64,000 bases of DNA from Firmicutes bacterium UBA5227 (lineage in GTDB: Bacteria > Bacillota > Clostridia > Tissierellales > Sedimentibacteraceae). Both the position numbers and the translations under genes were made by a program. The notes beneath the pieces were generated by a model. The model did no database searches. It saw only the letters and a list, made by a program, of their open reading frames with translations, and was not told the DNA's origin. The stretch is taken from NCBI GenBank assembly GCA_002409285.1, contig DHUT01000088.1, positions 11,158 to 75,157 on the forward strand, in the 5' to 3' direction. Below are positions 42,438-62,178 of this stretch, piece after piece. How positions within the stretch are numbered: the first letter of the stretch is position 1; each line of letters opens with the position of its first letter.

Positions 42438-42705
42438 AAAAAGTCCCTATAAGCACATATGTGCTTATAGGGACGAAATCTTCCGCGGTACCACCCTGAT
42501 TATGATATCATTATAATATCATCACTCTTCGGGGTCTAACAACCCCTAACCCTGTAACGAAGGTTCTCGTGTCCGCCTACTCGTTATCTTTCAGCAAACC
42601 TGCTCAGCAGTGTATATTATATTCCTCTGTCCTTGGCTCTCAGCACCCGCCAATTCTCTGTAAACGTCTGAAATATTTTTCTCTGCTTCAACGCTTTAAA
42701 CTTAT
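42438..42705 (-). ncRNA. T-box riboswitch, probable Tyr (UAC) specifier
   Basis: T-box AGGGTGGTACCGCG at 42484-42497, long terminator stem gtccctataagcac/gtgcttatagggac plus T-tract, stem I AGAGA and GGTGCTGAGA motifs; TAC at 42612-42614 in the putative specifier loop. Confidence 0.9.
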
Positions 42706-42713
42706 TGATTGCT

Positions 42714-42742
42714 ATCATAAACCAAAAAATATCCTTTGTCAA
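42714..42742 (-). promoter_or_regulatory. SigA promoter of the T-box leader
   Basis: TTGACA-N17-TATGAT. Confidence 0.8.
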
Positions 42743-42848
42743 CAACTTTTTTTAGAAATTTTTATCTGTAAAAAAGGAAGGCTCTTTAATGAACTGTATT
42801 TCAATTGCTTATAGAACACTGCTTATTATAATCAAACAGGCAGATTCT

Positions 42849-45800: not shown

Positions 45801-45932
45801 TTTGATACGTCTTGGACGATATATACCGTCTATTTGACGAGAAAGTCCTTTGAATAAGTCCACAGTAGAGTGGATTGCTTTTAATTGATAATCTAATTCA
45901 TCATCAAACTGAAATGCAATTCTTTTTGCCAC
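42849..45932 (-). CDS. res: Type III restriction endonuclease Res subunit
   Basis: METGTGKT, IIDEPQ, YSATH, LREGWDNPNVF, QEIGRGLRL, C-terminal SPDW...IVETK PD-(D/E)xK motif; GTG start. Confidence 0.93.
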   Translation of the reverse strand: MAKRIAFQFDDELDYQLKAIHSTVDLFKGLSRQIDGIYRPRRIKKLDEGDPVRNQSIVTGSRLLQNLRKVQLDNKLFADNELANNNFTIEMETGTGKTYVYLRTILELYKEYDFKKFMIVVPSIAIRKGVEKSIDQLKDHFKRLYDVDLSKHSFIYDSNNPKKVSSSLVETNDLSICVLNIQAFNKDTNKIRSEDEYGQILWEDIKYIKPIVIIDEPQKIEGQKGKKSKSLQAIDEIEPLFVLRYSATHKKLYNQIYKLDSYAAYKNDLVKKITVKTVNGVIERDYPYIRYIAFTKDLKARIEMFSQKQGDSIRFKTFDVSANTSLEDLSGGLVQYRNMRIVEEPHKLKPLKVATTDGTIILELGESNNGLEDSEATRIQIRLAIRNHLEKQFAILKSGKKIKTLTLFFVDAVSKVRDKTRPDGRGEYLRIFDEEYQSAIKGYEKQFSKYKEYFPEYQNGLKVREGYFAIDKKNNEVEIEDWDDNKSELDVKAKSQEDIDRGISLILERKDELISFEEPLSFIFSHSALREGWDNPNVFTLCTLKNGSSDIAKKQEIGRGLRLPVDITGNRCLDTDINELTVIANDSYENFSRVLQEDFNQSMNFNKNEVTSDILTVALEKAGVPKEKITAELVDTFKQELMGKGVFDSNNILHKNVEQTTKLLEDIVFEDEILKEHSVKLKENFAELMVEKGSRRIEINNGDNEPYVNTIRAFVSEEEFQQIYLGLSSNLTKRTLYKCNVNKDTFVSDCIKEINSYLQYFRVTRAVNITTGRGEFNDAQMFEMEKSGDKTFDIDVGMKVTPKGDFEIVNYIMYHTMLPRLTIFNILKGIEKREALNFQDVLDRVTQKILVKLNDSKASSIFSYEVIEGYELDEGQIFATDTIAEEDFRDEWRVFKSNPNRKNALNEYYKMDSKGERKFAEKLEANDNVILFTKLKKGGFVIDTPYGNYSPDWAIVCRKEGLEAGAVGVYFIVETKADKLEKDLTSVENNKIRCGKLHFKAVSELVKFDWVNSYEDLKTKFGVKESM

Positions 45933-45945
45933 GGCTACTTCCTCC

Positions 45946-47826
45946 TTATATAAATTCTACAGTGTATGATTTTTTCTCAAGTCCAGAATTCCTTTCAATG
46001 AGGTTTTTAAGCCTTCTAAAGGTTTCATCCTTTAAATTGATATCGTCTTTAAAAGCAGAATCCCTAAAGATAAATTTAATAGGCAGTGGGTCAAGAGCAG
46101 CTATTTTATCAATTAATTTCTCTGTAATTTCTGTTTCAAGGCAAATCAAGTATGCACTGCCATATAAGTAAGTCCTGCTTCCAATATGGGTTAAAGTTTC
46201 TAAAGTAGAGGATAGTGGTACATCCTTCTGGCGGAGCATCACTTCATATACAACATCAATATCATTAAAGCCTATAGTAAAGTCAGCAAGGTCAGGAGTG
46301 TGTGACATTGTACTGGCATCAAGCTGTCCTAATTCGTCATACAAGTTCCATTTGATATTGGTATCAGCAGTTCTAAAGACTTTAAAGCCAATATCAGGCA
46401 CTTGTTTTGGTTCTTCGCCAATTTTAAGCTGTGCATTGGCAGTTTCAATTTCTTGTTTGATCTTTTCACCTGCGCGTCGGATACGTTCTTTGCCAAGTTC
46501 ACATATATCTTTGTAACCTGCTTTGTAAGCTTCTGAGCTTTCGTCGGTTTCTTCGGGTAGCTGAACCATAATAAATTTTCTGTTCCCTCCGTCCTCACCA
46601 TTTAGTTGCATAACTGCGTGGGCGGTAGTGGCAGAGCCAGAAAAGAAGTCGAGTATCAAATCATCGTCTTGAACTGTAAAGAACGTTGCCCCAAGAATTA
46701 ATTCTTTTAGTAAAGAAATAGGTTTTGGGTAGTCAAAATATTGTTCTAAACCTAATACTTCTAAGTCCTTTACTCCATTTGCAGACAAATGTTTAAGTAC
46801 ACTGTAAAATTTTGACGCATCTTCATTTACATTACGAAGCTTTCCAACAATATGCATACCATTACCTTTAGGTAAAAGGACATATTCCCCATTTTTGATT
46901 TTTTCATCTATCTCCATCAAGGTTTTTTCCCCTTTATATTCGAGGATTTCCTCATAGTGACAATTTCCGTATTTTCCAAATTCTTTACGTAGCCAATCCT
47001 CTTGTATCCAGTATTTCACACCATCTTTCTCAATAATTTTTCCTCGAATATCCTTAGGCCGTCCTAATGGAGTAAAAGAACCTATACTTTTTGCATATAC
47101 AAATAAATAATCATGCCCTTTTATCACTTGTTTTGCAAGTCCACCACCTTCTGCACGAATAACCATTAGTTCTGCAACTTTATTATTGTCTCCAAATACT
47201 TCATTTAAAATTTTTATTGCATTTGCTTGCTCATTATCATCAATACTAATAAAAATAACTCCATCGTCGGTGAGTAAGTCTTTTGCAACTTTAATCCTCG
47301 GATACATCATATTCAACCAATTAGCATGAAAACGGTTAGATGATTGTTGGTTTTTCTGCAAAGGATTCCCTTCATCATCACGAGTACCTTCTGCTATATC
47401 ACTTTCCTTACTGTTCATGGTAAAATTATCATTATATACAAAATCATTTCCCGTGTTATAGGGTGGATCTATATATATCATTTTAATAGCACCATAATAG
47501 TTTTGTCGAAGCATTTTCAAAACTTCAAGGTTATCCCCCTCAATATAAAGATTTTCGGTAGTATTTGGGTTTTTGCTATCTTCTTCAATATATTTGAGCG
47601 TTCTGTTATATACATCCTCCTGAGCTTTTTTCTTTGCATCCTGCTTGCCTGCCCAAGTAAGTTCATATTTTTCTTTGCCCACTTCTTCAAACTGTCCAAG
47701 TTCTTCCTTTAATGCCTCAAAATCAACCTGTCCGTCTTTAACGGCAGAGGGGAATAGCTGTGCTAACAGCTTTACATTATCCCCAACAATGTTGTTAATC
47801 TCCTGTGGCACTTTTACATAGTCCAT
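45946..47826 (-). CDS. mod: Type III restriction-modification Mod subunit (adenine methyltransferase, beta-class motif order)
   Basis: YIEGDNLE, YIDPPYNTG, FISIDDNE, PKP, DFFSGSATT. Confidence 0.95.
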   Translation of the reverse strand: MDYVKVPQEINNIVGDNVKLLAQLFPSAVKDGQVDFEALKEELGQFEEVGKEKYELTWAGKQDAKKKAQEDVYNRTLKYIEEDSKNPNTTENLYIEGDNLEVLKMLRQNYYGAIKMIYIDPPYNTGNDFVYNDNFTMNSKESDIAEGTRDDEGNPLQKNQQSSNRFHANWLNMMYPRIKVAKDLLTDDGVIFISIDDNEQANAIKILNEVFGDNNKVAELMVIRAEGGGLAKQVIKGHDYLFVYAKSIGSFTPLGRPKDIRGKIIEKDGVKYWIQEDWLRKEFGKYGNCHYEEILEYKGEKTLMEIDEKIKNGEYVLLPKGNGMHIVGKLRNVNEDASKFYSVLKHLSANGVKDLEVLGLEQYFDYPKPISLLKELILGATFFTVQDDDLILDFFSGSATTAHAVMQLNGEDGGNRKFIMVQLPEETDESSEAYKAGYKDICELGKERIRRAGEKIKQEIETANAQLKIGEEPKQVPDIGFKVFRTADTNIKWNLYDELGQLDASTMSHTPDLADFTIGFNDIDVVYEVMLRQKDVPLSSTLETLTHIGSRTYLYGSAYLICLETEITEKLIDKIAALDPLPIKFIFRDSAFKDDINLKDETFRRLKNLIERNSGLEKKSYTVEFI

Positions 47827-47895
47827 TTGTTATTCCTCCATTTATCTAATTAATCTATAAATTACTCATTTTTGTACTTGTTTTGGACGTTCATG

Positions 47896-47937
47896 CTATA
47901 AAGCAGTTGTTCGGAATTTCCGAACAACTGAAACTTC
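47896..47937 (-). pseudogene. Probable scar of a RhuM-family gene, coinciding with a perfect 27-bp palindrome
   Basis: Minus strand reads EVSVVRKFRTTAL*; palindrome cagttgttcggaa-t-ttccgaacaactg at 47904-47930; RhuM assignment is from memory of the VVRKFRTTA motif. Confidence 0.45.
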
Positions 47938-47941
47938 GGTT

Positions 47942-48658
47942 TTATACCTTATCCAATTCGATTATAGCTTGTCTGATTTCTTGATTCAGCTTCATTTTTT
48001 CACTGTTAGATATAGATTTTTGCACCTTTTCTTTATTGCGTGCAACAGCACAGAGGAGGGTGTATACCTCTTTTTGTCTGTTAATGCTGTACCATATAGG
48101 TTTCTCTAAAAAGCTCTTTGCCTTTGCATATACTTTATCATTCGTTAAGATGTAAGCTCGCAGATACATTTCAAAATAAAAGGTAGCTTTGTTGTCTTTG
48201 TTTTTGATATTGTCATAGGCAAGTTCCCTTAGCAAATTGTTTTTATCAGAGCTGGGTAGGACAGTGGGGTAGACAGTTGTAAGAACCTTGTCTGTAACCA
48301 CAATCTGTGTTCTGTCATTCTGATTCAATCGTTTTAGTGCAAAGGAGTATACCTCGTTGCTGTTATCGTTTAGTCGTAGAACACAAGGAGACTTTATTAT
48401 CTCCTGATACATATTTGCAATAAAGGACGCCTTTTTCATATCAACAAGTTCTATGTCATAATACTGAATAACTTGGCAATTGTATTCATCATTCACCAAA
48501 GATGGTATACCTTCTCCCATTATCTGATAGCTTAATATAACGCTTTTTACATTATCCCTGATTTTCTTTCTTACATCAGGCTTCAATACCTTAGGTATGA
48601 AATCCTTAATTGGCAGTTTTTTGCCAACTTTATATTTCTCCGGTAAGTTAAACATCAT
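47942..48658 (-). CDS. DUF4391-like hypothetical protein
   Basis: MFNLPE start, size and position between the SNF2 helicase and Mod match my recollection of DUF4391 loci; start overlaps the helicase stop. Confidence 0.6.
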   Translation of the reverse strand: MMFNLPEKYKVGKKLPIKDFIPKVLKPDVRKKIRDNVKSVILSYQIMGEGIPSLVNDEYNCQVIQYYDIELVDMKKASFIANMYQEIIKSPCVLRLNDNSNEVYSFALKRLNQNDRTQIVVTDKVLTTVYPTVLPSSDKNNLLRELAYDNIKNKDNKATFYFEMYLRAYILTNDKVYAKAKSFLEKPIWYSINRQKEVYTLLCAVARNKEKVQKSISNSEKMKLNQEIRQAIIELDKV

Positions 48659-51600
48659 TCCACCACCAAAAATGAAATAAGTTCAAAATCATCCGCTGTT
48701 TCATCTGCAAAGTCATTATTAAATCCACCGAAATCAAACGTAGTTTGGAAGGCTTTTTCTTCTTCAGCACCTTTAATAGAATTAACTGCCTTGTTCAAAA
48801 GGTCGGAATAAAACTTCATGTCATTTGTATTATTTGTTTTAACAAGGAATTGATCAAATAATGATTGAACCGGCTTATCTTTGCCATAGCAAAGTTTTCT
48901 AAAAAGTTTGATAACCTCGCGTGCTTTTCCACTTCCATAGAGAACTTCACCCTTATTATCTAAATAAATCAAATAATAGGGATACAAGGAGCTGTCAGAC
49001 TTTGGCTTTTCATCTTGGTTACTATGTTTAAAGCAGAATATAACGCCTTGCTTTTCTCCATCAGTAACAGAATATATCCCACTTGGTACTTTCTTTATTG
49101 ATGGATTATTTTTTACATACTCTGATAATTCATACAAGTATTCGTTCATATTAAGGTCGGTTAAGGAGATGTTTTCATTAGCATCCTCAATATCAATAAC
49201 TTCATCTTTTAACCGTTCTAATTGCCTTTTTCTAAAATTAAAATCATTCATTTCAGGAGACAGGAAATCCTCATCACCTGTAGACACAATATTTAGTGTT
49301 GTCATTTTACCTTTAACTCGCTGCTCCAAGCCTAAATACTCGTTAAGCTCAAGATTCGGGTAGAAGTTAATCATCTGAATACATTCATTGGTGCTTCCAA
49401 TACGGTCAATACGGCCAAATCTTTGTATGAGCGAAACAGGATTCCACTGAATATCAAAGTTGATTACTGTATCACAGTCCTGTAAATTTTGTCCTTCTGA
49501 AATACAATCTGTACCTATAAGAATATCTATCTGTTCATCATCTGGAATATCTTTTTTCATTTTTGATTTTGGAGAAAATGCACATAGAACAGAGTTAAAT
49601 TCGCTATCCACATTTTTGTTTGTTGTCTTTACTCCTCTGCCCGTAACGCAAGCAGTGTCTAAGTGAACCTTTTTAAGCTCTTCTGCAATCTTCTGATAAA
49701 TATAGTCTGCTGTATCTGAAAAAGCAGTGAATACAAGGATTTTTTTGTTACCGCTATTATAAGGTGTTTGTGTTACCTTTTTAATAATTTCATCTTGCAG
49801 AGTACGGATTTTTAAATCTCTGTTTTCTTCTAATATGCATTTTGCTTCATTATAAATTTTTTCAAGAATAATTCTGTCGCCCTCCAAATCGTACAGATAA
49901 TCTTTGATACGTAAGTGGGCAACTTCAATTTCATATTTTCCTTCTAAATATTCATATTCTTCATCTGCTGTACCTGTTTCTTCGTCAACCTGACCGCCTT
50001 TATTAAGTACCTCCATGGTTCTGTCTATTCGCTCCATCAATCTCCGAATGGTTTCTGCAAATGAATATACGGAACTTTCCATGCGTTTAAAGAGGTTAAA
50101 GCGGTGCATGACAATCATACCCTTGGACTGGGTTTGAAAATCCATTTTTCCGCCGTGTTTTCCTTTTAAACTGTATTTCTCAACATATAATTTCTGGTAT
50201 TCACTTTTAATATATCTTGTTGGTGTATATACCGACAATTCAAGGGACTCCAGCAATTCATTTGTATCAGCAAACTTCAATAGCTTTTCTTGGCAGTCAA
50301 TTTCAGGGCGTCTGGTTATCGGTTTATTCTTGTTAGGGAATTTACCGACACTGCTATTTCCGTAATAGCTGGTGATATGCTTTCTGCTTCTTGAAATTGT
50401 CATAAGCTCAAGCAGTTTATAAAATTCTGATGGAAGACTGTCAAGCAAGTCATTTTTATTATGGTTTGGTACAGTTTGCCATTGATTAATAATAGTTGAA
50501 GACTTCCTAAGTAGGTTCTCTACGCTGGAGATACCTTCATCTTCAAAAGCAAAATCTCTATCACCTGTTATTATGCTAATCTGATTTTTTAGATCTACCA
50601 AACTATTGTTAACAGGTGTAGCAGAAAGGAGTAGCACCTTGGTATTATTTTTACCTCTTTTTATTACGTCCTGCATCAAACGTGCATACCTTGTCATTAT
50701 TAGCTGGTCATTATCATCATAACGATCATTCCTATTCCTAAAATTATGGGATTCATCTATTACAACAAGGTCATAGTTACCCCAATCAAATCTTTTCAGG
50801 TCTTGTCCAGATTGAGACATGCCTTTATATCTTGATAAATCTGTATGAAACATAATCTTATAATTGAATGTTTCATTTAACAAACTATCCTTATATGTAC
50901 CTCTAAAAGAGTTCCAGTTATCATATAGCTTTGCAGGGGTAAGAACAAGTACATTATCCATCTTTATTTCAAAGTATTTTATGACTGCAAGGGCTTCAAA
51001 GGTTTTACCTAATCCAACAGAATCAGCAATTATACAGCCACCATATTTTTGCAGCTTTTGAATTGCTGATACAACACAGTCCTTCTGAAAATCATAAAGA
51101 GATTGCCATATTTGAGTTTTTTTAAATTTCTCGCTATCTCTTTCAAATCTTTCTACACCACTGTCTATTTGATATCCAAACAGCTCATTCAGGGTAAAAT
51201 AATATAAAAACTCAGGGGAGTGCTCTTTATAAATAAAAGATAAACTTTGTAATAAATCCTCTTTATAATCAGAGGATACCTGCTCGTTAAACCATATTTG
51301 ATTGAAAGTATTCAGTGCTGAAAGTATTTGCTCTTTATCCATTGTTCCATTGAGCATCGTATCAAAATTAATATTTCTAAAAGCATTCCTGCTTTTCTTT
51401 AGTGTTACCTCCAAAGAAGAGGAACCTTGTATCATAAAATCATCGTCTATAATGATTATATTACCACCTATTTTAACTTTAGGATTTGCTTTTTTTACAT
51501 TAACATTTGCTTTGATAAAATCGTGCATGGCTTTTGCTTTTGAAAAATGTTTTAATTTGTTTTTTTCAACGATATCATAAGAGTTGTATAAAATATCCGT

Positions 51601-51828
51601 TGGAGCCATTTCAAACTCATGGGATATTTCATTTTTTTCAGGCACAAATTTTGTATCCCTGATTACAAAATTTATTTCTTTTACATTTTTTAAGTTTTGT
51701 TCAAGCAAGGCAAAGACAGATAGTGTTAGCTTATCATTTACGATATTCACTACCGCATTTTTTTTCGTTTTAAGCACATAATTAATTTTTTCAATCATTT
51801 GCTCTGTTGAAGCAATTACATTTCCCAT
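48655..51828 (-). CDS. SNF2-family helicase with degenerate PLD-like N-terminal domain
   Basis: IIADSVGLGKT, VVIDESHN, LLSATP, SEGQNLQD, QRFGRIDRIG. Confidence 0.9.
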   Translation of the reverse strand: MGNVIASTEQMIEKINYVLKTKKNAVVNIVNDKLTLSVFALLEQNLKNVKEINFVIRDTKFVPEKNEISHEFEMAPTDILYNSYDIVEKNKLKHFSKAKAMHDFIKANVNVKKANPKVKIGGNIIIIDDDFMIQGSSSLEVTLKKSRNAFRNINFDTMLNGTMDKEQILSALNTFNQIWFNEQVSSDYKEDLLQSLSFIYKEHSPEFLYYFTLNELFGYQIDSGVERFERDSEKFKKTQIWQSLYDFQKDCVVSAIQKLQKYGGCIIADSVGLGKTFEALAVIKYFEIKMDNVLVLTPAKLYDNWNSFRGTYKDSLLNETFNYKIMFHTDLSRYKGMSQSGQDLKRFDWGNYDLVVIDESHNFRNRNDRYDDNDQLIMTRYARLMQDVIKRGKNNTKVLLLSATPVNNSLVDLKNQISIITGDRDFAFEDEGISSVENLLRKSSTIINQWQTVPNHNKNDLLDSLPSEFYKLLELMTISRSRKHITSYYGNSSVGKFPNKNKPITRRPEIDCQEKLLKFADTNELLESLELSVYTPTRYIKSEYQKLYVEKYSLKGKHGGKMDFQTQSKGMIVMHRFNLFKRMESSVYSFAETIRRLMERIDRTMEVLNKGGQVDEETGTADEEYEYLEGKYEIEVAHLRIKDYLYDLEGDRIILEKIYNEAKCILEENRDLKIRTLQDEIIKKVTQTPYNSGNKKILVFTAFSDTADYIYQKIAEELKKVHLDTACVTGRGVKTTNKNVDSEFNSVLCAFSPKSKMKKDIPDDEQIDILIGTDCISEGQNLQDCDTVINFDIQWNPVSLIQRFGRIDRIGSTNECIQMINFYPNLELNEYLGLEQRVKGKMTTLNIVSTGDEDFLSPEMNDFNFRKRQLERLKDEVIDIEDANENISLTDLNMNEYLYELSEYVKNNPSIKKVPSGIYSVTDGEKQGVIFCFKHSNQDEKPKSDSSLYPYYLIYLDNKGEVLYGSGKAREVIKLFRKLCYGKDKPVQSLFDQFLVKTNNTNDMKFYSDLLNKAVNSIKGAEEEKAFQTTFDFGGFNNDFADETADDFELISFLVVE

Positions 51829-51878
51829 GTCTGTTCATTCCTTACTATAGTCTACTTTATATAACAAATACCTACTTT

Positions 51879-51907
51879 ATTATAGATTAAACATCATAAA
51901 TTTACAA
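51879..51907 (-). promoter_or_regulatory. SigA-type promoter upstream of the helicase-DUF4391-mod-res block
   Basis: TTGTAA-N17-TATAAT. Confidence 0.6.
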
Positions 51908-51964
51908 GATTTTTAACAAATGCATAAATAGAATCACACGTTTGTGAGATAAATGTTAGTAGCT

Positions 51965-52041
51965 ACACCGTGGGGTTCAAGTCTTTTCTGCGGCACTAAA
52001 TTATAAGCCTGAAAAGATGTGATATCCTTTCAGGCTGTTTT
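51965..52041 (+). repeat. att-like diverged copy of the tRNA-Leu 3' end plus its terminator (inverted relative to the tRNA gene)
   Basis: Manual alignment to 62127-62049 (minus strand): 67 of 79 columns identical. Confidence 0.85.
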
Positions 52042-52188
52042 AATTTTATATATTTTATACTTCCATATAATAATCATACGAACATCATTTATCAATTGTT
52101 AAAATAAGTTTACTCTGATGCAGGTTAGCTGCTTTTATTTCAATTTTTCCAAGGAAATCTTCCATTGCAGATTTGTTGCCAAGATTTT

Positions 52189-52216
52189 TAAAGGAATGCC
52201 AAGCGGCATTCCTTTA
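52189..52216 (-). terminator. Terminator hairpin after pckG
   Basis: aaaggaatgcc / ggcattccttt. Confidence 0.75.
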
Positions 52217-52221
52217 TTTTT

Positions 52222-54015
52222 TTATGCTAATGATGGTTCTGCATAATTATTTAAATTGTTTTTTAATGTTGTCAGTTCATCCTTTAATTCTTCCGGCAGT
52301 GTATTTCCTATTTTGCCATAGAATTCTTCAATACTTTCTATATCTTCAATCCAGGAATCTTTATCTATAGTAAGCAGCGAGTTCATCACCTCTTCCGAAA
52401 CATCCAGATCCTCTGTATTTATGTCTTCAACCTTTGGAATAAATCCTATGGGAGCTGTGTCCGCTGTTACATTGTTTTCACATCTGTTGATTATCCATTC
52501 CAACACTCTGAAGTTTTCACCATAGCCCGGCCATAAGAATTCACCGTCAGAATTTGTCCTGAACCAATTTACGTGGAATATCTTAGGCGGATTACTCATT
52601 TTCTTGCCCATTTCAATCCAATGTCCAAAATAATCACCCATGTTGTAGCCACAGAACGGAAGCATTGCCATTGGATCTCTTCTTACAACTCCAACCTTTC
52701 CGGCGGCTGCTGCAGTGGTTTCAGATGCAAGAGTCGAGCCTACAAATACACCATGCTGCCAGCTTCTTGATTGATATACCAGTGGAGCTGTCTTTGCACG
52801 TCTACCTCCGAATATTATTGCAGAAATAGGAACTCCCTCCGGTGCTTCCCACTCTTTTGATATGCATGGGCAGTTTTTAGCAGGAGCTGTAAATCTGGAA
52901 TTAGGATGTGCTCCCTTTTCCTTTGATGTTTTTCCGTTCCACGGATTTCCCTGCCAATCAAGAGCATGTTCAGGAGGATTGTCATCAAATTTTTCCCACC
53001 AAATGGTATCATCATCCAAATTATATGCCACATTAGTAAATATGGTATCCTTCTTTGTAGACATCATAGCGTTATAATTTGATTGTAAATTTGTTCCCGG
53101 AGCAACTCCAAAGAACCCTGCCTCTGGATTAATAGCCCAAAGCCTTCCGTCTTCTTTTATCTTAAGCCATGCGATGTCATCGCCAACTGTCCATACCTTG
53201 TAGCCTTTTTTCGTGTATATTTCAGGAGGTATAAGCATGGCAAGATTTGTTTTTCCGCAAGCTGACGGGAAAGCAGCTGCCATATATTTTACTTCTCCCT
53301 TTGGATTTTCTATTCCAAGTATGAGCATGTGTTCTGCCATCCATCCTTCTTTCCAGCCCTGGTAAGAAGCAATACGAAGTGCAAAGCATTTTTTCCCAAG
53401 CAACACATTTCCGCCGTATGCAGAATTACATGACCAGATTGTATTATCTTCAGGGAAGTGGAATATATATCTTTTATCAATATCAAGGGTACATTTTCCG
53501 TGTAGTCCTCTTACAAAATCGTTAGAATCACCAAGTACGTCCAGAACTTTTTTACCTATTCTTGTCATAATGCTCATGTTTACGACTACATATATAGAAT
53601 CTGTAACTTCAATACCAATTTTTGAAAATGGAGAGCCTACAGGACCCATAGAATACGGTATAATGTACATGGTTCTTCCGTTCATTGAATTATCAAATAT
53701 TTCTCTACCTAATTCATAAGCTTCTTCGGGACTCTTCCAATTGTTAGTCGGTCCAGCATTTTCTTTATTTTTTGAACAGATATACGTCTTGTCCTCCATA
53801 CGAGCAACATCATCTTTTCGTGAGCGATGATAATAGCAACCCGGATATTTTTCCTGATTTAACTTTTTAAATTCACCCGTTTTGCATGCTTCATCTTTAA
53901 GCATTTTCAATTGTTCTTCGCTTCCGTCAATCCACATTACTTTTGAAGGTTTAGTTATGGATACTACTTCGTCTATCCATTTTAAAACATTTAAATTTGA
54001 AGTTAAGCTTTGCAT
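52222..54015 (-). CDS. pckG: Phosphoenolpyruvate carboxykinase, GTP-dependent
   Basis: YGGNVLLGKKCFALR, WMAEHM, AFPSACGKTNLAM, VGDDIAW, HPNSRF, FGGRR, DPMAMLPF. Confidence 0.97.
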   Translation of the reverse strand: MQSLTSNLNVLKWIDEVVSITKPSKVMWIDGSEEQLKMLKDEACKTGEFKKLNQEKYPGCYYHRSRKDDVARMEDKTYICSKNKENAGPTNNWKSPEEAYELGREIFDNSMNGRTMYIIPYSMGPVGSPFSKIGIEVTDSIYVVVNMSIMTRIGKKVLDVLGDSNDFVRGLHGKCTLDIDKRYIFHFPEDNTIWSCNSAYGGNVLLGKKCFALRIASYQGWKEGWMAEHMLILGIENPKGEVKYMAAAFPSACGKTNLAMLIPPEIYTKKGYKVWTVGDDIAWLKIKEDGRLWAINPEAGFFGVAPGTNLQSNYNAMMSTKKDTIFTNVAYNLDDDTIWWEKFDDNPPEHALDWQGNPWNGKTSKEKGAHPNSRFTAPAKNCPCISKEWEAPEGVPISAIIFGGRRAKTAPLVYQSRSWQHGVFVGSTLASETTAAAAGKVGVVRRDPMAMLPFCGYNMGDYFGHWIEMGKKMSNPPKIFHVNWFRTNSDGEFLWPGYGENFRVLEWIINRCENNVTADTAPIGFIPKVEDINTEDLDVSEEVMNSLLTIDKDSWIEDIESIEEFYGKIGNTLPEELKDELTTLKNNLNNYAEPSLA

Positions 54016-54304
54016 TTTACACTCCTATAAATTAATTATGTTATACTATATATTTATTTTTTAAATATGTGTTATGATATTGATTTTTCAAATTTATTAT
54101 ATCTTGTCTTAATATTACTTTCAATATCCAAAAAAACTTTCGTTTTATTTAAGCTTTTCTCTGTATTTACCTAAATATTTTAAGAGTATTCTCCATAAAC
54201 CTAACATATTTAATTTGTTAAATAATTGCAAAATGATATGCTAAACCCTCACATCAGACAAAAGTATTAAGTAAATGTTATACTGATAAAAATCACCATC
54301 TCCT

Positions 54305-55672
54305 TTAAGTGTAATTTTTATGCCTTTGTTTTCCAAACAATATATATGAGACTGCCATATTTATCAGCGGACATATATAACACAACACTGCATAGGGTGC
54401 ATATTGTATTGCCGTAATGCCCATGATTGGTTTTATTAAAAGTGCGTTTACATTCCAAGGCATAAGAGGTGCCACAATTACTCCCGTATCTGAAATTGTC
54501 CTTGCCAATACAGTTTCATCCATACCCATCTCCTTATACTTTTCATTCAGAATTTTTGCCGGAACTATTATGCCGGAAGTCTGATCGCAGGTAGCAACAG
54601 TGAGGAGTATACTCATAAGTCCCGTTCGCCTTATTAGAGTCATTTTAGAATTAATTCCATTAATTAGTTTTCCTATTACCGGCATAAGTATATTACCCTT
54701 TTCAAACAGCTGTATCAATGCATAGGCAGCAACTACCATACAAATTGTCTCAACCATTGAAATCATGCCTCCGCTTACCAAAAGCCTGTTAAGTTCCGGT
54801 GAAGGAGTATTACCATGATACCCAAACACTAATGAGGTTAAAACTTCTTTTACTGTAGCTCTCTGAAAAACAATGCTGAGCACGGAGCCAACACCAATGC
54901 CTATTGAAAAAGTTATTATTGAATTCAGCCCTGCAATGGAAAGCCCCAGTACGATAACGGGTAGTATCAACAAAAAAGGAGAGACATTAAAGCCTGATGC
55001 TATTGCATCCTTATACAATAAAAGTTTGCTGTAATCTCCGGACGTATATTTTAAACCAATTAAATAGTAAATAACTGCTGTTATAATTATTGTAGGTATT
55101 AGTGTTACAACTAAGCTTTTAAAAATTTCCTTGTAGCTTTTGTTTGTTGCTTTCATCAATAGATTTACAAGTCCAGACAGCGGAGATATTTTATCTGCTA
55201 TAAATGCACCCGAAACCAGCATTCCAATAATCACGTTCTGAGGTATACCCAGCCCCATTCCTATACCGCTCAAAGAAATACCTACGGTACTCATAGTACC
55301 CGCTGCTGTTCCCATGAATAATGAAATTAGTGACATTATTAAAAACGAGGCAAACAAAAAATTGACACCCTCCATATATGTAAACCCATAATGCATTATT
55401 GTCGGCACAACACCTGAAGAAAGCCATATAGATGTTGTTGCACCTATAAACAATATAACTACAATAAGGTTCTTTATTTCAAGTATCGAGTTTAATATTG
55501 TCTTTAACAAATCCGACAGACTATATCCGCTTTTAATCAATACTGCCAAAGTAAAAACTATTCCCATGACAAATCCGATAAATAAGGGAATTGACAACAC
55601 TAATGAAAAAAATATAAATCCCAGGCTGATTAACATTATTGCCATAGGATTAAGAGCTAACCTTTTATCCAC
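54305..55672 (-). CDS. NhaC-family Na+/H+ antiporter-like transporter
   Basis: GTAAGT, SGAFIADKISPLS, RTISDTG, PLMPWN. Confidence 0.85.
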   Translation of the reverse strand: MDKRLALNPMAIMLISLGFIFFSLVLSIPLFIGFVMGIVFTLAVLIKSGYSLSDLLKTILNSILEIKNLIVVILFIGATTSIWLSSGVVPTIMHYGFTYMEGVNFLFASFLIMSLISLFMGTAAGTMSTVGISLSGIGMGLGIPQNVIIGMLVSGAFIADKISPLSGLVNLLMKATNKSYKEIFKSLVVTLIPTIIITAVIYYLIGLKYTSGDYSKLLLYKDAIASGFNVSPFLLILPVIVLGLSIAGLNSIITFSIGIGVGSVLSIVFQRATVKEVLTSLVFGYHGNTPSPELNRLLVSGGMISMVETICMVVAAYALIQLFEKGNILMPVIGKLINGINSKMTLIRRTGLMSILLTVATCDQTSGIIVPAKILNEKYKEMGMDETVLARTISDTGVIVAPLMPWNVNALLIKPIMGITAIQYAPYAVLCYICPLINMAVSYILFGKQRHKNYT

Positions 55673-55949
55673 ATTACACCTCTGCTAAAAAATTAAGTAA
55701 TAAATTATTGGCAGAAACACTGCCGAAAGCATATTGTTTGTCTTTACGTGTTTGATATCCCACTGCTTCATTGCAATACACTTTTGTTAATATATATTAA
55801 CATCTACCATAAAGGAATGCAAATATTTTATTATAACCTTTATAGCTTATTAACTGCCCTGTATCTCTTAGAATCAAATAAAAAAGTTATTCAGCTCCTT
55901 TATTATCCTCGAACTGAATAACCTTGCAATATTTATAATACTATCTTTA

Positions 55950-56849
55950 TCAATGTGACATTGAATAGTTTTCTATATTTTGTATCACTTTTTTACCTAA
56001 CCGCTTTGTACTCTGTACAGTGGTTCCTGCTGTTTTATTTACGCATGATACATTGGGAAGCGAAATTATTTCACCGGACTCATCTCCCGATCCTATGATG
56101 GTATCGCAAAGAAAATAGTTGCTCTTATCAGCAAGCCAGTTTTTCAGTGCATTAACATCATGACTTGGTCCTATAGATGTATTTACAAGTATTTTACCAT
56201 TGCCGAAAATTTCAAATTCCCTCTGATTGAGAAGAACTACATTTTTGTTAAGACATGTACAGAGAATATCAGCCTTTTTCAGCAATTCCTCCATCTCAAG
56301 ATATTTAAAGCCCCTGTTTTCCTGCTCCGGTTTACGGGTACGGCTGTAATAATACACATCCGCACCAAAAAAACGAAGTGCGTTTCCAACAATTAAACCT
56401 GTTGCCCCAAGACCAAGTATCCCAATTTTCATATCTGTAAGCTCTACAGATTTATCTTTCCATTGACTGTTTCCAAATCCGTGCAGTAAACGAACCAACT
56501 CGCTAATCACATATTCCGCAACACCTTCATCGCCATAATCCCGAACTCCGCTCACAGTGATATTTTGTTTTTCCGCAGCTGTAATGTCTACATTTGCGCT
56601 TTCTTTCGAGTACAGACTGCAGCACATCCCAATGTATTTTAAATTTTTACATGTATTAATAACCTGTGAATCTATCTTCGTGGTATAAGAAACCAAAACA
56701 GCATCTGCATTTCCTATACGTCTTATTATTTCTTCGTTATCTTCAGGGATATCCTGATATAACTTTACTTCATTGGCATAGCCTGAAAGTAAATCCTTCG
56801 ACTCCCGATCTATGTTAACAGGTTCAATTGCTACTAACCTTTGAAACAT
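55950..56849 (-). CDS. D-2-hydroxyacid-dehydrogenase-fold NAD(P)-binding protein with non-canonical active site
   Basis: GILGLGATG Rossmann motif, RIGNADAVLV; NTSIG instead of NxxRG and NKTAG instead of PHxA. Confidence 0.75.
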   Translation of the reverse strand: MFQRLVAIEPVNIDRESKDLLSGYANEVKLYQDIPEDNEEIIRRIGNADAVLVSYTTKIDSQVINTCKNLKYIGMCCSLYSKESANVDITAAEKQNITVSGVRDYGDEGVAEYVISELVRLLHGFGNSQWKDKSVELTDMKIGILGLGATGLIVGNALRFFGADVYYYSRTRKPEQENRGFKYLEMEELLKKADILCTCLNKNVVLLNQREFEIFGNGKILVNTSIGPSHDVNALKNWLADKSNYFLCDTIIGSGDESGEIISLPNVSCVNKTAGTTVQSTKRLGKKVIQNIENYSMSH

Positions 56850-57736
56850 TAATTATTGTCCTCCTTTGTAATAAAGTAATTCTCCATAAATTTTTTAATC
56901 TCCAACGAAGCCTTATATGCCTCATTTTTAGATGCTGCTCCTTCTTCTACAGCCTCATTGACAGCTTCCTTTAAAGAATAATCTTTGTGAATTAATTTGT
57001 CAAATAAGATTCCATGGATACTTACATTTAATGTGTTCTGTTCCTTTTCTTCATAGTCGTTGTTGTAGCCTACAATTACATATTCGCCTCTTTCTGTGTC
57101 ATCACTACTGTTCAACTGCTGAAGAACGGAATCAACGCTTCCGTAAAATGAGTTTTCATGAAGCTTTGTTAATTCCTTGCATACACATACGGTTGCATTT
57201 GGCATGTGTTCTTTCAGACTTTCCATAAGATTGATTATTCGTTTTGGAGATTCATAAAGTACAAATGTTTTTATAGTATTGTCCTTTATTCTTTTCAATG
57301 CATTATCAAGCTCGCTTTTCTTTCTTGGCAAAAATCCGTAAAAAGCAAACTCCCGTGTATCTATTCCTGCAACGGAGAGAGCAATTATAACCGCTGAAGC
57401 TCCCGCCAGTCCTATTACCTCGATTCCTGCTTCTCTTGCGCTTTTCACAAGCTCATATCCGGGATCTGAAATGCATGGAGTTCCTGCATCTGTTACCAGT
57501 GCCACAGTTTTGTTTTCAGAAAGAATTTCATCTACAATTTCCGGACTTCTTTCCTTTTCATTAAATTTATGGTATGAAATCATATGTTTTTTTATATCAA
57601 AAAAGTTTAATAGCTTTTGAGTGTGTCTTGTATCTTCTGCCAATATATAATCACACTCTTTAAGGGTTTCTATTGCCCTTTGAGTCATGTCACTTAAATT
57701 GCCTATGGGTGTAGGCACTATGTATAATTTACTCAT
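56849..57736 (-). CDS. rsmI: 16S rRNA (cytidine-1402-2'-O)-methyltransferase
   Basis: Start set at 57736: LYIVPTPIGNL, AEDTR, DAGTPCISDPG, YESPKR, ELTKLHE, RGE. Confidence 0.96.
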   Translation of the reverse strand: MSKLYIVPTPIGNLSDMTQRAIETLKECDYILAEDTRHTQKLLNFFDIKKHMISYHKFNEKERSPEIVDEILSENKTVALVTDAGTPCISDPGYELVKSAREAGIEVIGLAGASAVIIALSVAGIDTREFAFYGFLPRKKSELDNALKRIKDNTIKTFVLYESPKRIINLMESLKEHMPNATVCVCKELTKLHENSFYGSVDSVLQQLNSSDDTERGEYVIVGYNNDYEEKEQNTLNVSIHGILFDKLIHKDYSLKEAVNEAVEEGAASKNEAYKASLEIKKFMENYFITKEDNN

Positions 57737-59906
57737 TAGTTTCTCCTGTTGTTTCCAGCCTGCAAAGGGCAAATTTAATTTCTCCGTATGTTATTTCCGG
57801 AGGCAGCGCCTCCTTTACAGGTTTAAGCTTATCCCCGCCGATTTTCTTATATGTACTTATAATAAGCCTTTCTTTATCTTCCGAAACAAAATCCCTGTAG
57901 TTTATTTCATAGCCTAATTTTGCGCAGTCTATCAGATGATTCTCTACCGTAACCGGTGAAAGTCCTCTTTCTTTTGCTATTTCAGCGATGTTTTTTCTTG
58001 ATCTGTACAAATTATAGCTTATTTCCCTTGTATCTTCCTTTTTAGCCCTTTCTTCAGTGCCCGTCTTTATCTCTCTTTCGCTGTATATATTTTGAGGTTT
58101 TATCTGTTTTAAATCAATATTGTTATTCTCTATATATTTTTTAATAGCCTCCATAAATTCACTGCCATATTTTTCGGCCTTAATTTCTCCCACTCCGGAT
58201 ACTTTAAGAAATTCTGCATTGTTTTGGGGGTATTTAATACACATATCCTTTAACGCTGCATCTGAAAAAACTACAAAGGGAGGAACTTTTAATTCATCGG
58301 CAATTTTCTTTCTAAGTGCCCTCAGTGTTTCAAACAGATCTTTGTTGTAATTAACCGATTTGTCAGGAGCTTCGTGTGTAGCAAAAATTTTTCTGATAGT
58401 CACCTGCTGTCTGCCCTTCAGAACTTCATGCCCCTGTCTTGATATACTGAGCACAGGATATTTGTCACCTATTACATTTATATAGCCGTCGGATATCAGG
58501 TAAGAAATCATCTCTTTTAATGTATCTTTGTCATATTCTTTCATTAAGCCGTATGTGCTTAACTTATGGAAATTTAATGATTTTATTCTTTGACCTGAGC
58601 TGCCTTTCAGTACATCTATTACCACATTGCTTCCAAAACGCTGCCCCATTCGGTAAATACAGGACAAAATTTTCTGGGTTTCTGTTGTTATATCACTGCT
58701 CTCAATATCACTGAGACAATTGCTGCAGTTATGGCAGTTTTCCGTCGTATAATTCGTATCAAAATAGCTTACCAGGTACTTCCTTAGGCATTTATCCGTG
58801 TTGCAGTAATTTACCATTTTTTTAAGTTTGTCATACTCAGTGGACTTTGTCAGCTCATCGCTAATGCTGTTTTCTATCAAAAAATTATTTATCACTATGT
58901 CCTGGGGACTGAACAATAAAATGCAGTCAGATGGTTCTCCGTCTCTTCCCGCTCTACCCGATTCCTGATAATATGATTCTACATTCTTAGGCATATTATA
59001 ATGAATGACATACCTGATGTCCAGCTTGTCTATTCCCATACCAAAAGCATTTGTAGCAACCATTATATCGGCATTGTCATAAAGAAAATCATCCTGATTT
59101 TTACTTCTTTCAGCATCACTGAGGCCTGCATGATAGCTGACGGCTTTATAGCCTGCACTTACAAGCCTTGCGCAGACCTCATCAGTCAGCTTTCTTGTAA
59201 GGCAGTAAATAATGCCTGACTTACCTTTATGTTCTTCTACATATTTCAATATGTAAGGGGATTTTTTATTTATTCTTACCACTTCAAACTTTAAATTTTC
59301 TCTGTCAAAGCCAGTAATAATTTCATAGTGATCACTTAACCCTATTAGATCTATTATATCATGTTTAACTTCAGGTGTTGCTGTTGCTGTAAATGCTGAA
59401 ACAACGGGATTATCTTCTGAAATATCTCTCAGGTTCCTGACTTTTAAATAGCTTGGTCTGAAATCATGACCCCACTGGGAAACGCAGTGGGCTTCATCAA
59501 CAGCTATCATGGAAATCTTAATGTTTTTTAGCATCTCCATAAAGCTTTCAGATTCTAACCGTTCCGGTGCAATATACAACAGCTTGTACTTGTTATTTTC
59601 AGCTTCGTATATGATCCGATTCAGTTTACCCATGGGCAATGAACTGTTAATAAACGCAGAAGACATGCCCATTTGCTGCAATGTATCCACCTGATCCTTC
59701 ATAAGGGATATAAGTGGTGAAATAACTATGGTGGTTCCCTCCATAAGCATGGCAGGTATCTGGTAGCACAGGGATTTTCCCCCGCCTGTAGGCATTATAG
59801 CCATCACATCCTTATGGGACAAAATATTCTCAATTATTTCCCTCTGTCCCTCCCTGAAGGAATCATATCCATAATACTTTTTTAATAATTCTACAGCTTT
59901 ATCCAT
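57729..59906 (-). CDS. recQ: ATP-dependent DNA helicase RecQ
   Basis: PTGGGKS, VDEAHCVSQWGHDFRP, QESGRAGRDG, Zn-binding cysteines, RQC and HRDC regions. Confidence 0.97.
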   Translation of the reverse strand: MDKAVELLKKYYGYDSFREGQREIIENILSHKDVMAIMPTGGGKSLCYQIPAMLMEGTTIVISPLISLMKDQVDTLQQMGMSSAFINSSLPMGKLNRIIYEAENNKYKLLYIAPERLESESFMEMLKNIKISMIAVDEAHCVSQWGHDFRPSYLKVRNLRDISEDNPVVSAFTATATPEVKHDIIDLIGLSDHYEIITGFDRENLKFEVVRINKKSPYILKYVEEHKGKSGIIYCLTRKLTDEVCARLVSAGYKAVSYHAGLSDAERSKNQDDFLYDNADIMVATNAFGMGIDKLDIRYVIHYNMPKNVESYYQESGRAGRDGEPSDCILLFSPQDIVINNFLIENSISDELTKSTEYDKLKKMVNYCNTDKCLRKYLVSYFDTNYTTENCHNCSNCLSDIESSDITTETQKILSCIYRMGQRFGSNVVIDVLKGSSGQRIKSLNFHKLSTYGLMKEYDKDTLKEMISYLISDGYINVIGDKYPVLSISRQGHEVLKGRQQVTIRKIFATHEAPDKSVNYNKDLFETLRALRKKIADELKVPPFVVFSDAALKDMCIKYPQNNAEFLKVSGVGEIKAEKYGSEFMEAIKKYIENNNIDLKQIKPQNIYSEREIKTGTEERAKKEDTREISYNLYRSRKNIAEIAKERGLSPVTVENHLIDCAKLGYEINYRDFVSEDKERLIISTYKKIGGDKLKPVKEALPPEITYGEIKFALCRLETTGETNE

Positions 59907-59916
59907 AATTCACACC

Positions 59917-59958
59917 TTACCTGTTTTCAACTTTTGTGCTACACCTAATCTTCAGCAT
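59917..59958 (-). pseudogene. Truncated YafQ-like toxin start (MLKIRCSTKVENR*)
   Basis: ATG overlaps the end of the dinJ-like gene by 14 nt, as in coupled TA pairs; the first residues resemble YafQ N-termini, then the frame stops just before the recQ start. Confidence 0.55.
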
Positions 59959-60217
59959 TTAAGTCATCCATAAGTTCTTTAACACTGTTAAAAGGTTCTT
60001 TTAAATTGCGTCCCAATCTTGCATCTTTCATTGCAGCAATCGTTTCAGCGTTCGGAGTATCCAGCCGCATATCGAACGGTATGCCATTTGAACGGACAGC
60101 TTGACGCAAAAAAACAGTAAGTGCAGTAGACATATTTAGTCCCAGTTCATTAAAAATTTCTTCCGCCTGCTTTTTCAATTCAGCGTCTATTCTAATGTTT
60201 AAATTTGTGGTTGCCAT
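59945..60217 (-). CDS. RelB/DinJ-family antitoxin (orphan)
   Basis: NLNIRID, LGLNMSTALTVFL, GIPF, PNAETIAAM. Confidence 0.92.
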   Translation of the reverse strand: MATTNLNIRIDAELKKQAEEIFNELGLNMSTALTVFLRQAVRSNGIPFDMRLDTPNAETIAAMKDARLGRNLKEPFNSVKELMDDLNAED

Positions 60218-60413
60218 AATTTATCAACTCCTTCGCATAGTAGTATATACCATAATTCTAAAAACATCAACACAATTTAACATATTTTTTATACGACGTC
60301 ATTACAAAAACCTACAAAACACTTTGGTTGTAAGTTTTGTGTACGCTTGCTGTTTGAGAGTAGATATGGTAAAATGAATATTATTAAAAAAAGGAAGATA
60401 TCCGGAGGCACAA

Positions 60414-61052
60414 ATGAATTTTATGAATGAAGCAATCAAAATATCCAGACCGGTTTGGCAGAAATCCATGAATTTACCCTTCATTCAGGAGCTAAAGACA
60501 GGTAAGTTATCTAAAGACAGATTTAACCTTTATCTTGAACAGGATAATATCTATCTTTTGTATTATGTTAAACTGTGTGGTAAAGCAATTTATAATTCTA
60601 AAGGTAATGAGGAAATCAGCCTGTATTTATCTTTAATATCATTTGCTTTTGATACTGAAATAGGCACAAGAACGGAAAATCTGGACAAAAAAAATTCAGT
60701 GAATGTATTGTTGGAAAACCAAAGATATATTGATTTTATCATGAGCTTCAGCAATGATTACAACAATGACCGAATTCTCTTAGTATTACTCCACTGTATG
60801 CTAAGCTATCAATATGTTTTTACTATGATTGCAAAAGATAATGTGGTAAAAAATTCAGAATATTACTTTTTTATTAAAGATTATTTAAGTGATGACTACA
60901 GGGATGCCTGTAACAGATGGACTGAATTTGCAAATAAAAAATACAGCAGCTTATCAGAAAGTAAAAAAATAGAACTTATTGATATTTTCAAAAAGGCAAG
61001 TCTTCTGGAATATGACTTCTGGAATATGGCCTATGAGGGAATAAACAGATAA
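60414..61052 (+). CDS. tenA: Thiaminase II / TenA-family protein
   Basis: PFIQEL, YLEQD..YL, Cys retained in LLHCM.SY, EYDFWNMAY. Confidence 0.85.
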   Translation: MNFMNEAIKISRPVWQKSMNLPFIQELKTGKLSKDRFNLYLEQDNIYLLYYVKLCGKAIYNSKGNEEISLYLSLISFAFDTEIGTRTENLDKKNSVNVLLENQRYIDFIMSFSNDYNNDRILLVLLHCMLSYQYVFTMIAKDNVVKNSEYYFFIKDYLSDDYRDACNRWTEFANKKYSSLSESKKIELIDIFKKASLLEYDFWNMAYEGINR

Positions 61053-61077
61053 ACTGCCCTGATAATGTATTTTTTGA

Positions 61078-61106
61078 TTGACAACATATTTTTCATGTGA
61101 TACATT
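61078..61106 (+). promoter_or_regulatory. SigA promoter upstream of the TPP riboswitch
   Basis: TTGACA-N17-TACATT. Confidence 0.7.
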
Positions 61107-61116
61107 AATTAAAAAT

Positions 61117-61204
61117 AAGCAGGGGAGCTTGTAAATCAGGCTGAGAGGAAATGATGCTATTTCGACCCTTTAACCTGATGCGGATAATGCCGACGTAGGA
61201 AAAT
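61117..61204 (+). ncRNA. TPP riboswitch
   Basis: GGGGAG...GGCTGAGAGG...GACCCTTTAACCTGATGCGGATAATGCCGACGTAGGAA; downstream hairpin agggacac/gtgtctct followed by T-rich sequence. Confidence 0.93.
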
Positions 61205-61282
61205 CATAATTGATTTTTTTAGGGACACTGACTCAGGTGTCTCTTGTTTTATTTAAAACTTAAAAAAAGAGAGGATATAAAA

Positions 61283-61993
61283 ATGAATTCGAGTATGTTT
61301 GACGGATATGCTGATCACTATGATAAATGGTTTATGGCAAATGATAAGGTGTTCTTAAGTGAATTAAAGTTACTTCATCACTGCTTAGAACCATTAAAGA
61401 AAGATAAAATTTTGTCTGTAGGCTGTGGAAGCGGTTTGTTTGAAAGTGTTTTAAATAAAGAGTATGGAATAAACAATATCTATGGTCTGGAACCATCTCA
61501 GGACATGGCAAAAATTGCAGTCAAAAGAGGAATTGATGTGAAACCCGGTAATGCTGAAACAGGTGAATTACCTTCTGAAGAATATGATATTATTTACTTT
61601 AATGGCTGTTCAACTTATATTCCTGATTTAAAAAAGGCATATGAAAATTGTTATTCAGCACTAAAAAAGGGAGGTCATTTCATTCTGCTGGATGTACCCA
61701 AAGAAAGTGCTTACGGAATTTTATACAGCTTTGCAAAACATGTGGGCAATTATGACAAAGATATTTTTGATAAAATAGCACCTGAATTACCATATCCTAT
61801 TGAACTGGTTACATCAGGAATATTTTATACTACCTTAGATAAGGCAAAAATCATCAAAGAATATTTGAATATGACGAATATTAAATTTTACCAGACGTTA
61901 ACCGGCAGCCCTGTCTACACCAACGATGCTGTTGAAGAACCAATTTCAGGATATGATAAGGGGGGATACGTAGCTATTGTTGCTCAAAAATAA
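61283..61993 (+). CDS. Class I SAM-dependent methyltransferase under TPP control
   Basis: Start set at ATG 61283 after AGAGGA; ILSVGCGSG motif I, LEPSQDM, LKKGG. Confidence 0.85.
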   Translation: MNSSMFDGYADHYDKWFMANDKVFLSELKLLHHCLEPLKKDKILSVGCGSGLFESVLNKEYGINNIYGLEPSQDMAKIAVKRGIDVKPGNAETGELPSEEYDIIYFNGCSTYIPDLKKAYENCYSALKKGGHFILLDVPKESAYGILYSFAKHVGNYDKDIFDKIAPELPYPIELVTSGIFYTTLDKAKIIKEYLNMTNIKFYQTLTGSPVYTNDAVEEPISGYDKGGYVAIVAQK

Positions 61994-62095
61994 AGAGGAC
62001 TAAGTATTTCAAGGAAAGTGATGCCTTTCAAGATAAAATTCAAATATAAAAATAGACTGAAAAGATTATCACATCTATTCAGTCTTATAATTCTA

Positions 62096-62178
62096 TGCCG
62101 CAGAAGGGACTTGAACCCCCACGGTGTTGCCACCAACGGATTTTGAGTCCGTCACGTCTGCCATTCCATCACTGCGGC
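62096..62178 (-). tRNA. tRNA-Leu (anticodon CAA), CCA not encoded
   Basis: Acceptor stem GCCGCAG/CTGCGGC, anticodon arm ACGGA-CTCAAAA-TCCGT, long variable arm, GGTTCAAGTCC T-arm. Confidence 0.96.

Follow-up and report, generated by a model that had tools for sequence, protein, structure and literature searches.

The genome of Firmicutes bacterium UBA5227, a Sedimentibacter, carries a partial copy of its own tRNA-Leu(CAA) gene at the edge of a restriction-modification (RM) cassette, within a stretch of 64,000 nucleotides of contig DHUT01000088.1 (assembly GCA_002409285.1, positions 11,158 to 75,157) that we refer to as the window. The copy is inverted relative to the resident tRNA gene, and the first-pass annotation of this DNA had suggested that an inversion of ~42.8-59.9 kb may have split a single island and thereby locked the RM system in the chromosome. 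Comparison with relatives leads to another view. The locus is best annotated as a plain insertion of a mobile Type III-like defence cassette in the spacer between pckG and the T-box leader of an ABC-transporter operon, with a probable relic attachment (att) site at its edge, and not as an island locked in place by an inversion; in kind, it is a relic att site bordering a genomic islet. The value of this result is mainly corrective, and as a piece of ordinary genome archaeology it will not surprise specialists.

The cassette interrupts a native gene order

Gene order around the locus was compared by a DNA search of 40 relatives, followed by BLAST on the loci that were fetched. The order ABC transporter, T-box, pckG, antiporter, TP-methylase, recQ and tRNA-Leu is kept, together with the relative orientation of its members, in at least 17 Sedimentibacter congeners. 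In G011, G013, G020, G002, G012, G001, G018, G008, G003, G015, G006 and G009, the T-box promoter lies ~12-200 bp from the pckG stop codon, and the spacer between them holds neither the cassette nor the tRNA-Leu copy. In the closest sister species that we found (L104 and L105; pckG 93% identical at the amino acid level and 87% at the DNA level), pckG is likewise followed by 61 bp and then the T-box, without cassette and without fragment, and a 90% relative (L106) has the same arrangement as the sister. At the other end of the block, recQ, or the TP-methylase gene where recQ is missing, adjoins tRNA-Leu in the relatives, with a gap of 85-300 bp in several of them and of at most 3 kb in others. 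The first-pass annotation implied that pckG had once been adjacent to tRNA-Leu, and recQ to the T-box; neither adjacency is found in any relative, and the intervening segment has its present orientation in all of them, including the sister species. Furthermore, the core block and the core genes on either side of it agree in the sign of their GC skew.

Thus, the native gene order in cassette-free relatives shows that the cassette is a simple insertion of ~9.4 kb into the spacer between the T-box and pckG. Because relatives lacking the RM genes have the stretch from the T-box through recQ to tRNA-Leu arranged and oriented in the same way, and because the GC skew is concordant, the proposed inversion is refuted, and we are highly confident that no chromosomal inversion has occurred at this locus. 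On paper, reversing ~42.8-59.9 kb does yield direct repeats around one block of accessory genes. However, the cassette-free relatives already have the order and orientation that the inversion would have had to produce, the ancestral adjacencies were never observed, the skew of the core block matches its flanks, and the spacer between the T-box and pckG is an independent insertion site in other congeners, so that a single inversion that split an island flanked by direct repeats is scarcely credible.

Misassembly was ruled out as well, by the identical arrangement in two independent metagenome assemblies. An identical PckG is encoded on seven contigs of public assemblies, and the two that were compared (ERZ27283037 and ERZ724023 in ENA) are 99.98-100% identical to the window over 15-22 kb and have the same architecture. 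An exact-protein look-up with the ABC substrate-binding protein returned no record, for which the choice of start codon is probably responsible.

Both the T-box-pckG spacer and the junction between tRNA-Leu and recQ are variable hot spots in Sedimentibacter. The spacer of G016 (L014:1645-4333) contains an aminotransferase gene and a gene for a Gate-domain membrane protein, and that of G019 (L015:8763-10751) and G023 (L016:404-2389) encodes a 661-amino-acid EF-G-like GTPase, possibly of the ribosome-protection type. Elsewhere in the block, three congeners have an insertion of ~17-18 kb at the junction of pckG and the antiporter gene (G012:C8:96540-114293, G015:C24:14568-31615 and G006:C41:3594-21499). 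In G001 (L019:626-708, C38), tRNA-Leu(CAA) is oriented opposite to the TP-methylase-pckG-T-box block, from which it is 1.9 kb away, as a result of a local rearrangement. The sister species has, in the syntenic position upstream of recQ, a divergent tRNA-Leu(CAA) gene of 87 nt (L104:6713-6799; ~76% identical, CCA encoded). Such divergence, in a gene that is otherwise 95-100% conserved in the genus, suggests that the tRNA gene has been replaced in the sister species.

A partial copy of tRNA-Leu(CAA) borders the cassette

ARAGORN identified a single tRNA in the whole window, tRNA-Leu(CAA) at 62096-62178 on the minus strand, which scores 49.6 bits with the tRNA model of Rfam. In BLAST and Smith-Waterman alignments, 51955-52058 (+) matches 62137-62033 (-) with 81% identity over 104 aligned nt (E 2.4e-19); the Smith-Waterman score of 109 compares with at most 28 for shuffled sequences. 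The two copies are ~10 kb apart, and the Pfam gene order and the synteny bear out that the core genes pckG to recQ lie between them. The first-pass annotation had matched 51965-52041 (+) with the 3' end of the tRNA and the hairpin that follows it. The sequences and alignments uphold this match, although the repeat is longer than was described, since it comprises 42 nt, and not 32 nt, of the tRNA 3' end and a further 63 nt beyond the gene.

The stems of the two hairpins read gactgaa/ttcagtc in one copy and gcctgaa/ttcaggc in the other, as had been noticed before, and both hairpins have stable predicted folds (-14.9 and -16.7 kcal/mol). Pairing has thus been retained in the relic through one compensatory pair change which, as a single pair only, hints at past selection on the hairpin. 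The tRNA part of the relic (51955-51996, 42 nt) has 6 differences from the resident gene, one of them a 1-nt deletion. Because they fall in a gene with 95-100% identity across congeners, the relic is, judged by its sequence, non-functional and old.

Neither a third copy of the repeat nor a second tRNA-Leu(CAA) is present in the 107-contig draft genome. An Rfam search of the relic region gave nothing significant, and no direct-repeat partner of the relic was found near recQ or at the res end of the cassette. In 50 genomes of the genus and 401 of the order, the only matches of the relic are tRNA-Leu(CAA) loci of Sedimentibacter. Its best match is the locus of its own genome (91.5 bits), followed by those of G016 and G021, whose terminators are visibly orthologous. 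A second tRNA-Leu that matches the copy better, which the first-pass annotation had considered as a pointer to a different origin, was found neither in the draft genome nor in these genus and order sets. We consider it very improbable that the relic is what remains of a second tRNA-Leu gene that once stood in the T-box-pckG spacer and lost its other part on insertion of the cassette. The proper terminator behind the relic, and the 130 bp of otherwise unexplained DNA that follow, would suit such a gene, but there is no tRNA in the T-box-pckG spacer of any congener or of the sister species, and these spacers are only ~12-200 bp long or carry unrelated genes.

tRNA-Leu(CAA) is an integration site in Sedimentibacter

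Inovirus-like prophages of 13 kb are integrated in tRNA-Leu(CAA) in G006 (L096:4846-17990, on G006:C41) and G044 (L097:2134-15278, on G044:C58), with a tyrosine integrase gene beside the tRNA and genes for a G2P replication protein and a CI repressor; a contig end of G014 (L098:267-319) belongs to the same set. The direct repeats that flank the prophages are perfect, are 58 and 84 nt long and start in the anticodon loop, and the 84-nt repeat, that of G044, runs 28 nt past the tRNA. The start of the relic, likewise in the anticodon loop, is no more than ~6 nt away from that of the G006 and G044 repeats. The prophages show that tRNA-Leu(CAA) is a genuine attB in Sedimentibacter and make it a recurrent integration site in this genus. 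Since the relic, which begins in the anticodon loop, takes in the 3' end and continues beyond it, is shaped like the prophage repeats and abuts foreign DNA, it is likely to be an att relic of some sort, whether imported or relocated within the genome. The earlier description of the copy as att-like therefore holds: it reproduces the 3' part of a tRNA with the canonical boundary, and congener prophages use the same tRNA as attB.

How far the likeness to known systems goes can be stated in some detail. Like the attL and attR sites of tRNA-integrated islands and prophages, the relic consists of the 3' part of the target tRNA from the anticodon loop past the 3' end (42 nt plus 63 nt downstream, 81% identity), has the canonical crossover boundary in the same tRNA that serves related elements as attB, and directly abuts horizontally acquired DNA. 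Unlike in those systems, where the copies are direct repeats with only island DNA between them, the relic is inverted and lies 10 kb away at a non-tRNA site, with core genes in between; it is 81% rather than ~100% identical to its partner; and there is no integrase gene beside either copy on the window contig. A second comparison is with CIMEs (cis-mobilizable elements), decayed elements that retain attL and attR around cargo without genes for integration or transfer (PMC5704250). The block in the window similarly combines defence cargo with an att-type sequence in the absence of recombination and transfer genes, and the nearest relative of its cassette is on a relaxase-bearing element. In contrast to a CIME, it has a single, decayed att-like copy beside the cassette instead of both attL and attR, and it is not located at the target gene of the element.

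The cassette is mobile cargo

The cassette has the composition of a Type III RM system with an HKD+SNF2 helicase and a DUF4391 gene in one predicted operon, including a Res protein with helicase and endonuclease parts and a Mod N6/N4 methyltransferase. PADLOC gave 621 bits for REase_III, 550 bits for MTase_III and 745 bits for the HKD+Snf2 candidate model. Relatives of the helicase that are 71-91% identical occur at 32 loci in Clostridia, Fusobacteria, Thermotogae and other groups, and the order helicase, DUF4391, mod, res is kept in most of them; by these sequence comparisons, the cassette is mobile cargo. The nearest cassette, with 84% DNA identity, is that of Clostridium algidicarnis DSM 15099 (L035), where it lies beside a MobA/VirD2 relaxase gene and an insertion sequence (IS) element. 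Homology with L035 extends from 42819, 30 nt past the res stop codon, to 51955, and thus ends exactly where the homology with the tRNA starts. At this junction, on the 3' side of the anticodon loop, the two homologies overlap by a few bases (AAAT).

In the gene order and the PADLOC and Pfam components, the window cassette agrees with other Type III RM systems of this kind, but it differs in the absence of a small helix-turn-helix (HTH) gene. In the three closest cassette relatives (L035:9616-10000, L036 and L037), a gene for a 76-amino-acid Cro/C1-type HTH protein separates the shared promoter region from the helicase gene; in the window (51829-51955), this gene is missing and the promoter region is 50 nt from the start of the helicase gene. 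In L035, a Gabija-like pair (an OLD-family AAA_15+TOPRIM ATPase and a UvrD helicase, L035:13223-16949) is inserted between the SNF2 helicase and DUF4391 genes, that is, one defence system is nested in another on an element with a MobA relaxase.

Origin of the relic and route of the insertion

On balance, we lean towards the view that the relic is the decayed attP of an integrative element, or an attR from the tRNA-Leu(CAA) locus of a related Sedimentibacter, that travelled with the cassette. The relic would have been formed by integrase-mediated recombination at tRNA-Leu(CAA) and carried along with the SNF2-DUF4391-Mod-Res cassette. A block of ~9.4 kb, made up of a 54-bp filler, the cassette, the relic and a 130-bp filler, would then have entered, in a single event in the lineage of this species, the short spacer that separates the T-box promoter from the pckG terminator. 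Entry into a non-tRNA spacer could have been by illegitimate recombination; reinsertion of an excised circle and filler capture are also possible routes. The inverted orientation relative to the resident tRNA-Leu would merely be the orientation in which the block landed. This reading is close to an alternative that the first-pass annotation had offered, an unrecombined attP relic left by an element with a different route of entry, although the relic may be either an attP or an attR.

The sequence of the 130-bp filler bears on this question. It has no homolog in the relatives, in their tRNA-recQ spacers or elsewhere in its own genome. Because it is unlike the chromosomal tRNA-recQ spacers of the relatives, it fits DNA derived from an element or donor, and the same dissimilarity argues against an origin from the native region upstream of recQ. 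Two candidates for its source were rejected: as a native recQ promoter region, it scored within the shuffle null against seven tRNA-recQ spacers, and a 32/36 match in G018 is within coding sequence and appears to be due to chance. The 54-bp filler has no other copy in its own genome.

Several observations weigh against an imported att relic. No attP-bearing element with the relic sequence was found in phage, plasmid and metagenome collections, and both metagenome pattern scans were empty; the first-pass annotation had suggested to look for attP sites in ICEs and phages. No integrase or recombinase was found on the 77-kb contig (no PF00589 match, no homolog of the congener integrases nearby and none among the large open reading frames; serine recombinases were not searched genome-wide), and the six PF00589 tyrosine recombinases of the genome are all on other contigs. 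The only candidate for a target-site duplication or terminal repeat is a 9/10 match to AAAGGAAnGC at 42773 and 52190, of which ~1 is expected by chance. The relic lies ~130 bp inside the insertion and not at its very edge, and its 6 differences in 42 nt make decay evident without pointing to a source. Finally, none of the 28 cassette loci that were scanned has a tRNA within 10 kb or a match to the relic, which makes the present locus the only one where the cassette is associated with tRNA-Leu; nor are the distant Sedimentibacter homologs of the cassette in G020 and G022 adjacent to a tRNA.

The finding that the resident locus is the best match of the relic would also fit a relocation within the genome. 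On the resident tRNA-Leu side of the core block, the window has a 2.1-kb insert with relB, tenA and a methyltransferase gene that is absent from all relatives compared and for which neither an integrase nor a direct-repeat partner was found. Cassette and insert might once have been one island at the resident tRNA-Leu, flanked by direct repeats, of which the distal part (flank, attR and cassette) was excised and re-inserted in inverted orientation 8 kb away, or was moved by two nested inversions that shared breakpoints. The geometry of the junctions fits canonical attL and attR sites, with island DNA on the tRNA side of the relic and on the hairpin side of the resident copy; the native promoter region of recQ is missing; and the species-specific nature of the 2.1-kb insert, which itself lacks an integrase and a distal repeat, keeps this scenario alive. 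However, relocation is less parsimonious, requiring either two inversions that reuse breakpoints or excision and reinsertion without a recombinase. The 130-bp filler does not resemble the spacers upstream of recQ in close relatives, its scores being in the null range, and no remainder of yafQ is present at the res-proximal end, where there is only the 54-bp filler. We therefore regard relocation as unlikely.

We hold it equally unlikely that the relic is filler DNA, i.e., ~105 bp copied from the resident tRNA-Leu locus into the junction during a microhomology-mediated illegitimate insertion and decayed since. On the one hand, the best match is the resident locus 10 kb off, the cassette and tRNA homologies share a few bases (AAAT) at their junction, and orphan filler flanks the cassette on both sides. 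On the other hand, the copy begins in the anticodon loop, like true att repeats, and continues without a break past the 3' end and across the terminator, as would an att block. Moreover, the tRNA part, which is otherwise invariant, has diverged by ~14%, and this is much for a copy that dates back no further than the separation from the sister species, to which intergenic identity is ~87%. Downstream of the tRNA, the relic also agrees at a few bases with congeners but not with the resident copy.

A variant that we consider rather less plausible again is that the cassette, together with its att relic and short arms, is a non-autonomous, CIME-like circular module that was once excised by a tRNA-Leu-specific integrase provided in trans and then re-entered the chromosome at a secondary, non-tRNA site. 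If this were true, defence cassettes could hop between hot spots within a genome or genus without a recombinase of their own.

Returning to the imported att relic that we favour, the relic is a small clue that a widespread four-gene cassette at some point travelled on a tRNA-targeting integrative element, which may help to trace how such cassettes spread. It is probably inert today; at most, the hairpin may shield the cassette promoter from transcription that runs on from pckG.

Features of the locus

Genes and RNA elements were called with Pfam, PADLOC and Rfam, and are on the minus strand unless marked + (Table 1).

Table 1. Coordinates of the features of the locus in the window, with the basis of each assignment.
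Feature	Position	Strand	Basis or remark
ABC substrate-binding protein	41350-42375	-	gene order
T-box leader of the ABC-transporter operon	42466-42700	-	Rfam T-box, 127.5 bits; -35 box at ~42737-42742
Left filler, ~54 bp, AT-rich	42765-42818		between native T-box promoter region and cassette
Whole defence cassette, horizontally acquired	42819-51955	-	Pfam, PADLOC, homology limits
Type III Res	42849-45932	-	Pfam, PADLOC
Mod	45946-47826	-	Pfam, PADLOC
DUF4391	47942-48658	-	Pfam
HKD+SNF2 helicase	48655-51828	-	Pfam, PADLOC
Cassette promoter-like site	51907-51879	-	promoter scan
Likely att relic: tRNA-Leu(CAA) 3' end and terminator-like hairpin (stem-loop 52006-52036)	51955-52058	+	alignment, statistics, fold
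Right filler, ~130 bp, AT-rich	52059-52188		between relic hairpin and native pckG terminator
Native bidirectional pckG terminator hairpin	52189-52216		fold, relatives' sequences
pckG	52222-54015	-	Pfam
Core block pckG to recQ, native orientation	52222-59906	-	Pfam, synteny, GC skew
recQ	57729-59906	-	Pfam
Species-specific 2.1-kb insert between recQ and tRNA terminator	59945-62032		relB (-), tenA (+), TPP riboswitch, methyltransferase (+)
relB	59945-60217	-	within the 2.1-kb insert
TPP riboswitch	61111-61218		Rfam
tRNA-downstream terminator hairpin and spacer, partner of relic hairpin	62033-62095	-	alignment, fold
Functional tRNA-Leu(CAA) gene	62096-62178	-	ARAGORN, Rfam

In the core block, pckG is followed by genes for a Na/H antiporter, a 2-hydroxyacid dehydrogenase, a TP-methylase and RecQ, and a sigma-54 activator gene lies beyond tRNA-Leu. 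The 2-hydroxyacid dehydrogenase gene (55950-56849) has no DNA or protein match in any of the fetched congener loci, and appears to be a further species-specific insert in this block. With respect to the 2.1-kb insert, the first-pass annotation had listed a dinJ-yafQ pair, of which the RelB/DinJ antitoxin was detected and an intact YafQ toxin was not.

The region upstream of recQ differs from that of the relatives. The relB stop codon and the recQ start codon are only 38 nt apart (59907-59947), and the final ~27 nt before recQ can be aligned with the leader of this gene in the sister species. Upstream of the window recQ, the TGCTATAAT promoter that is conserved in the relatives is absent, so that the relB promoter probably now drives recQ transcription.

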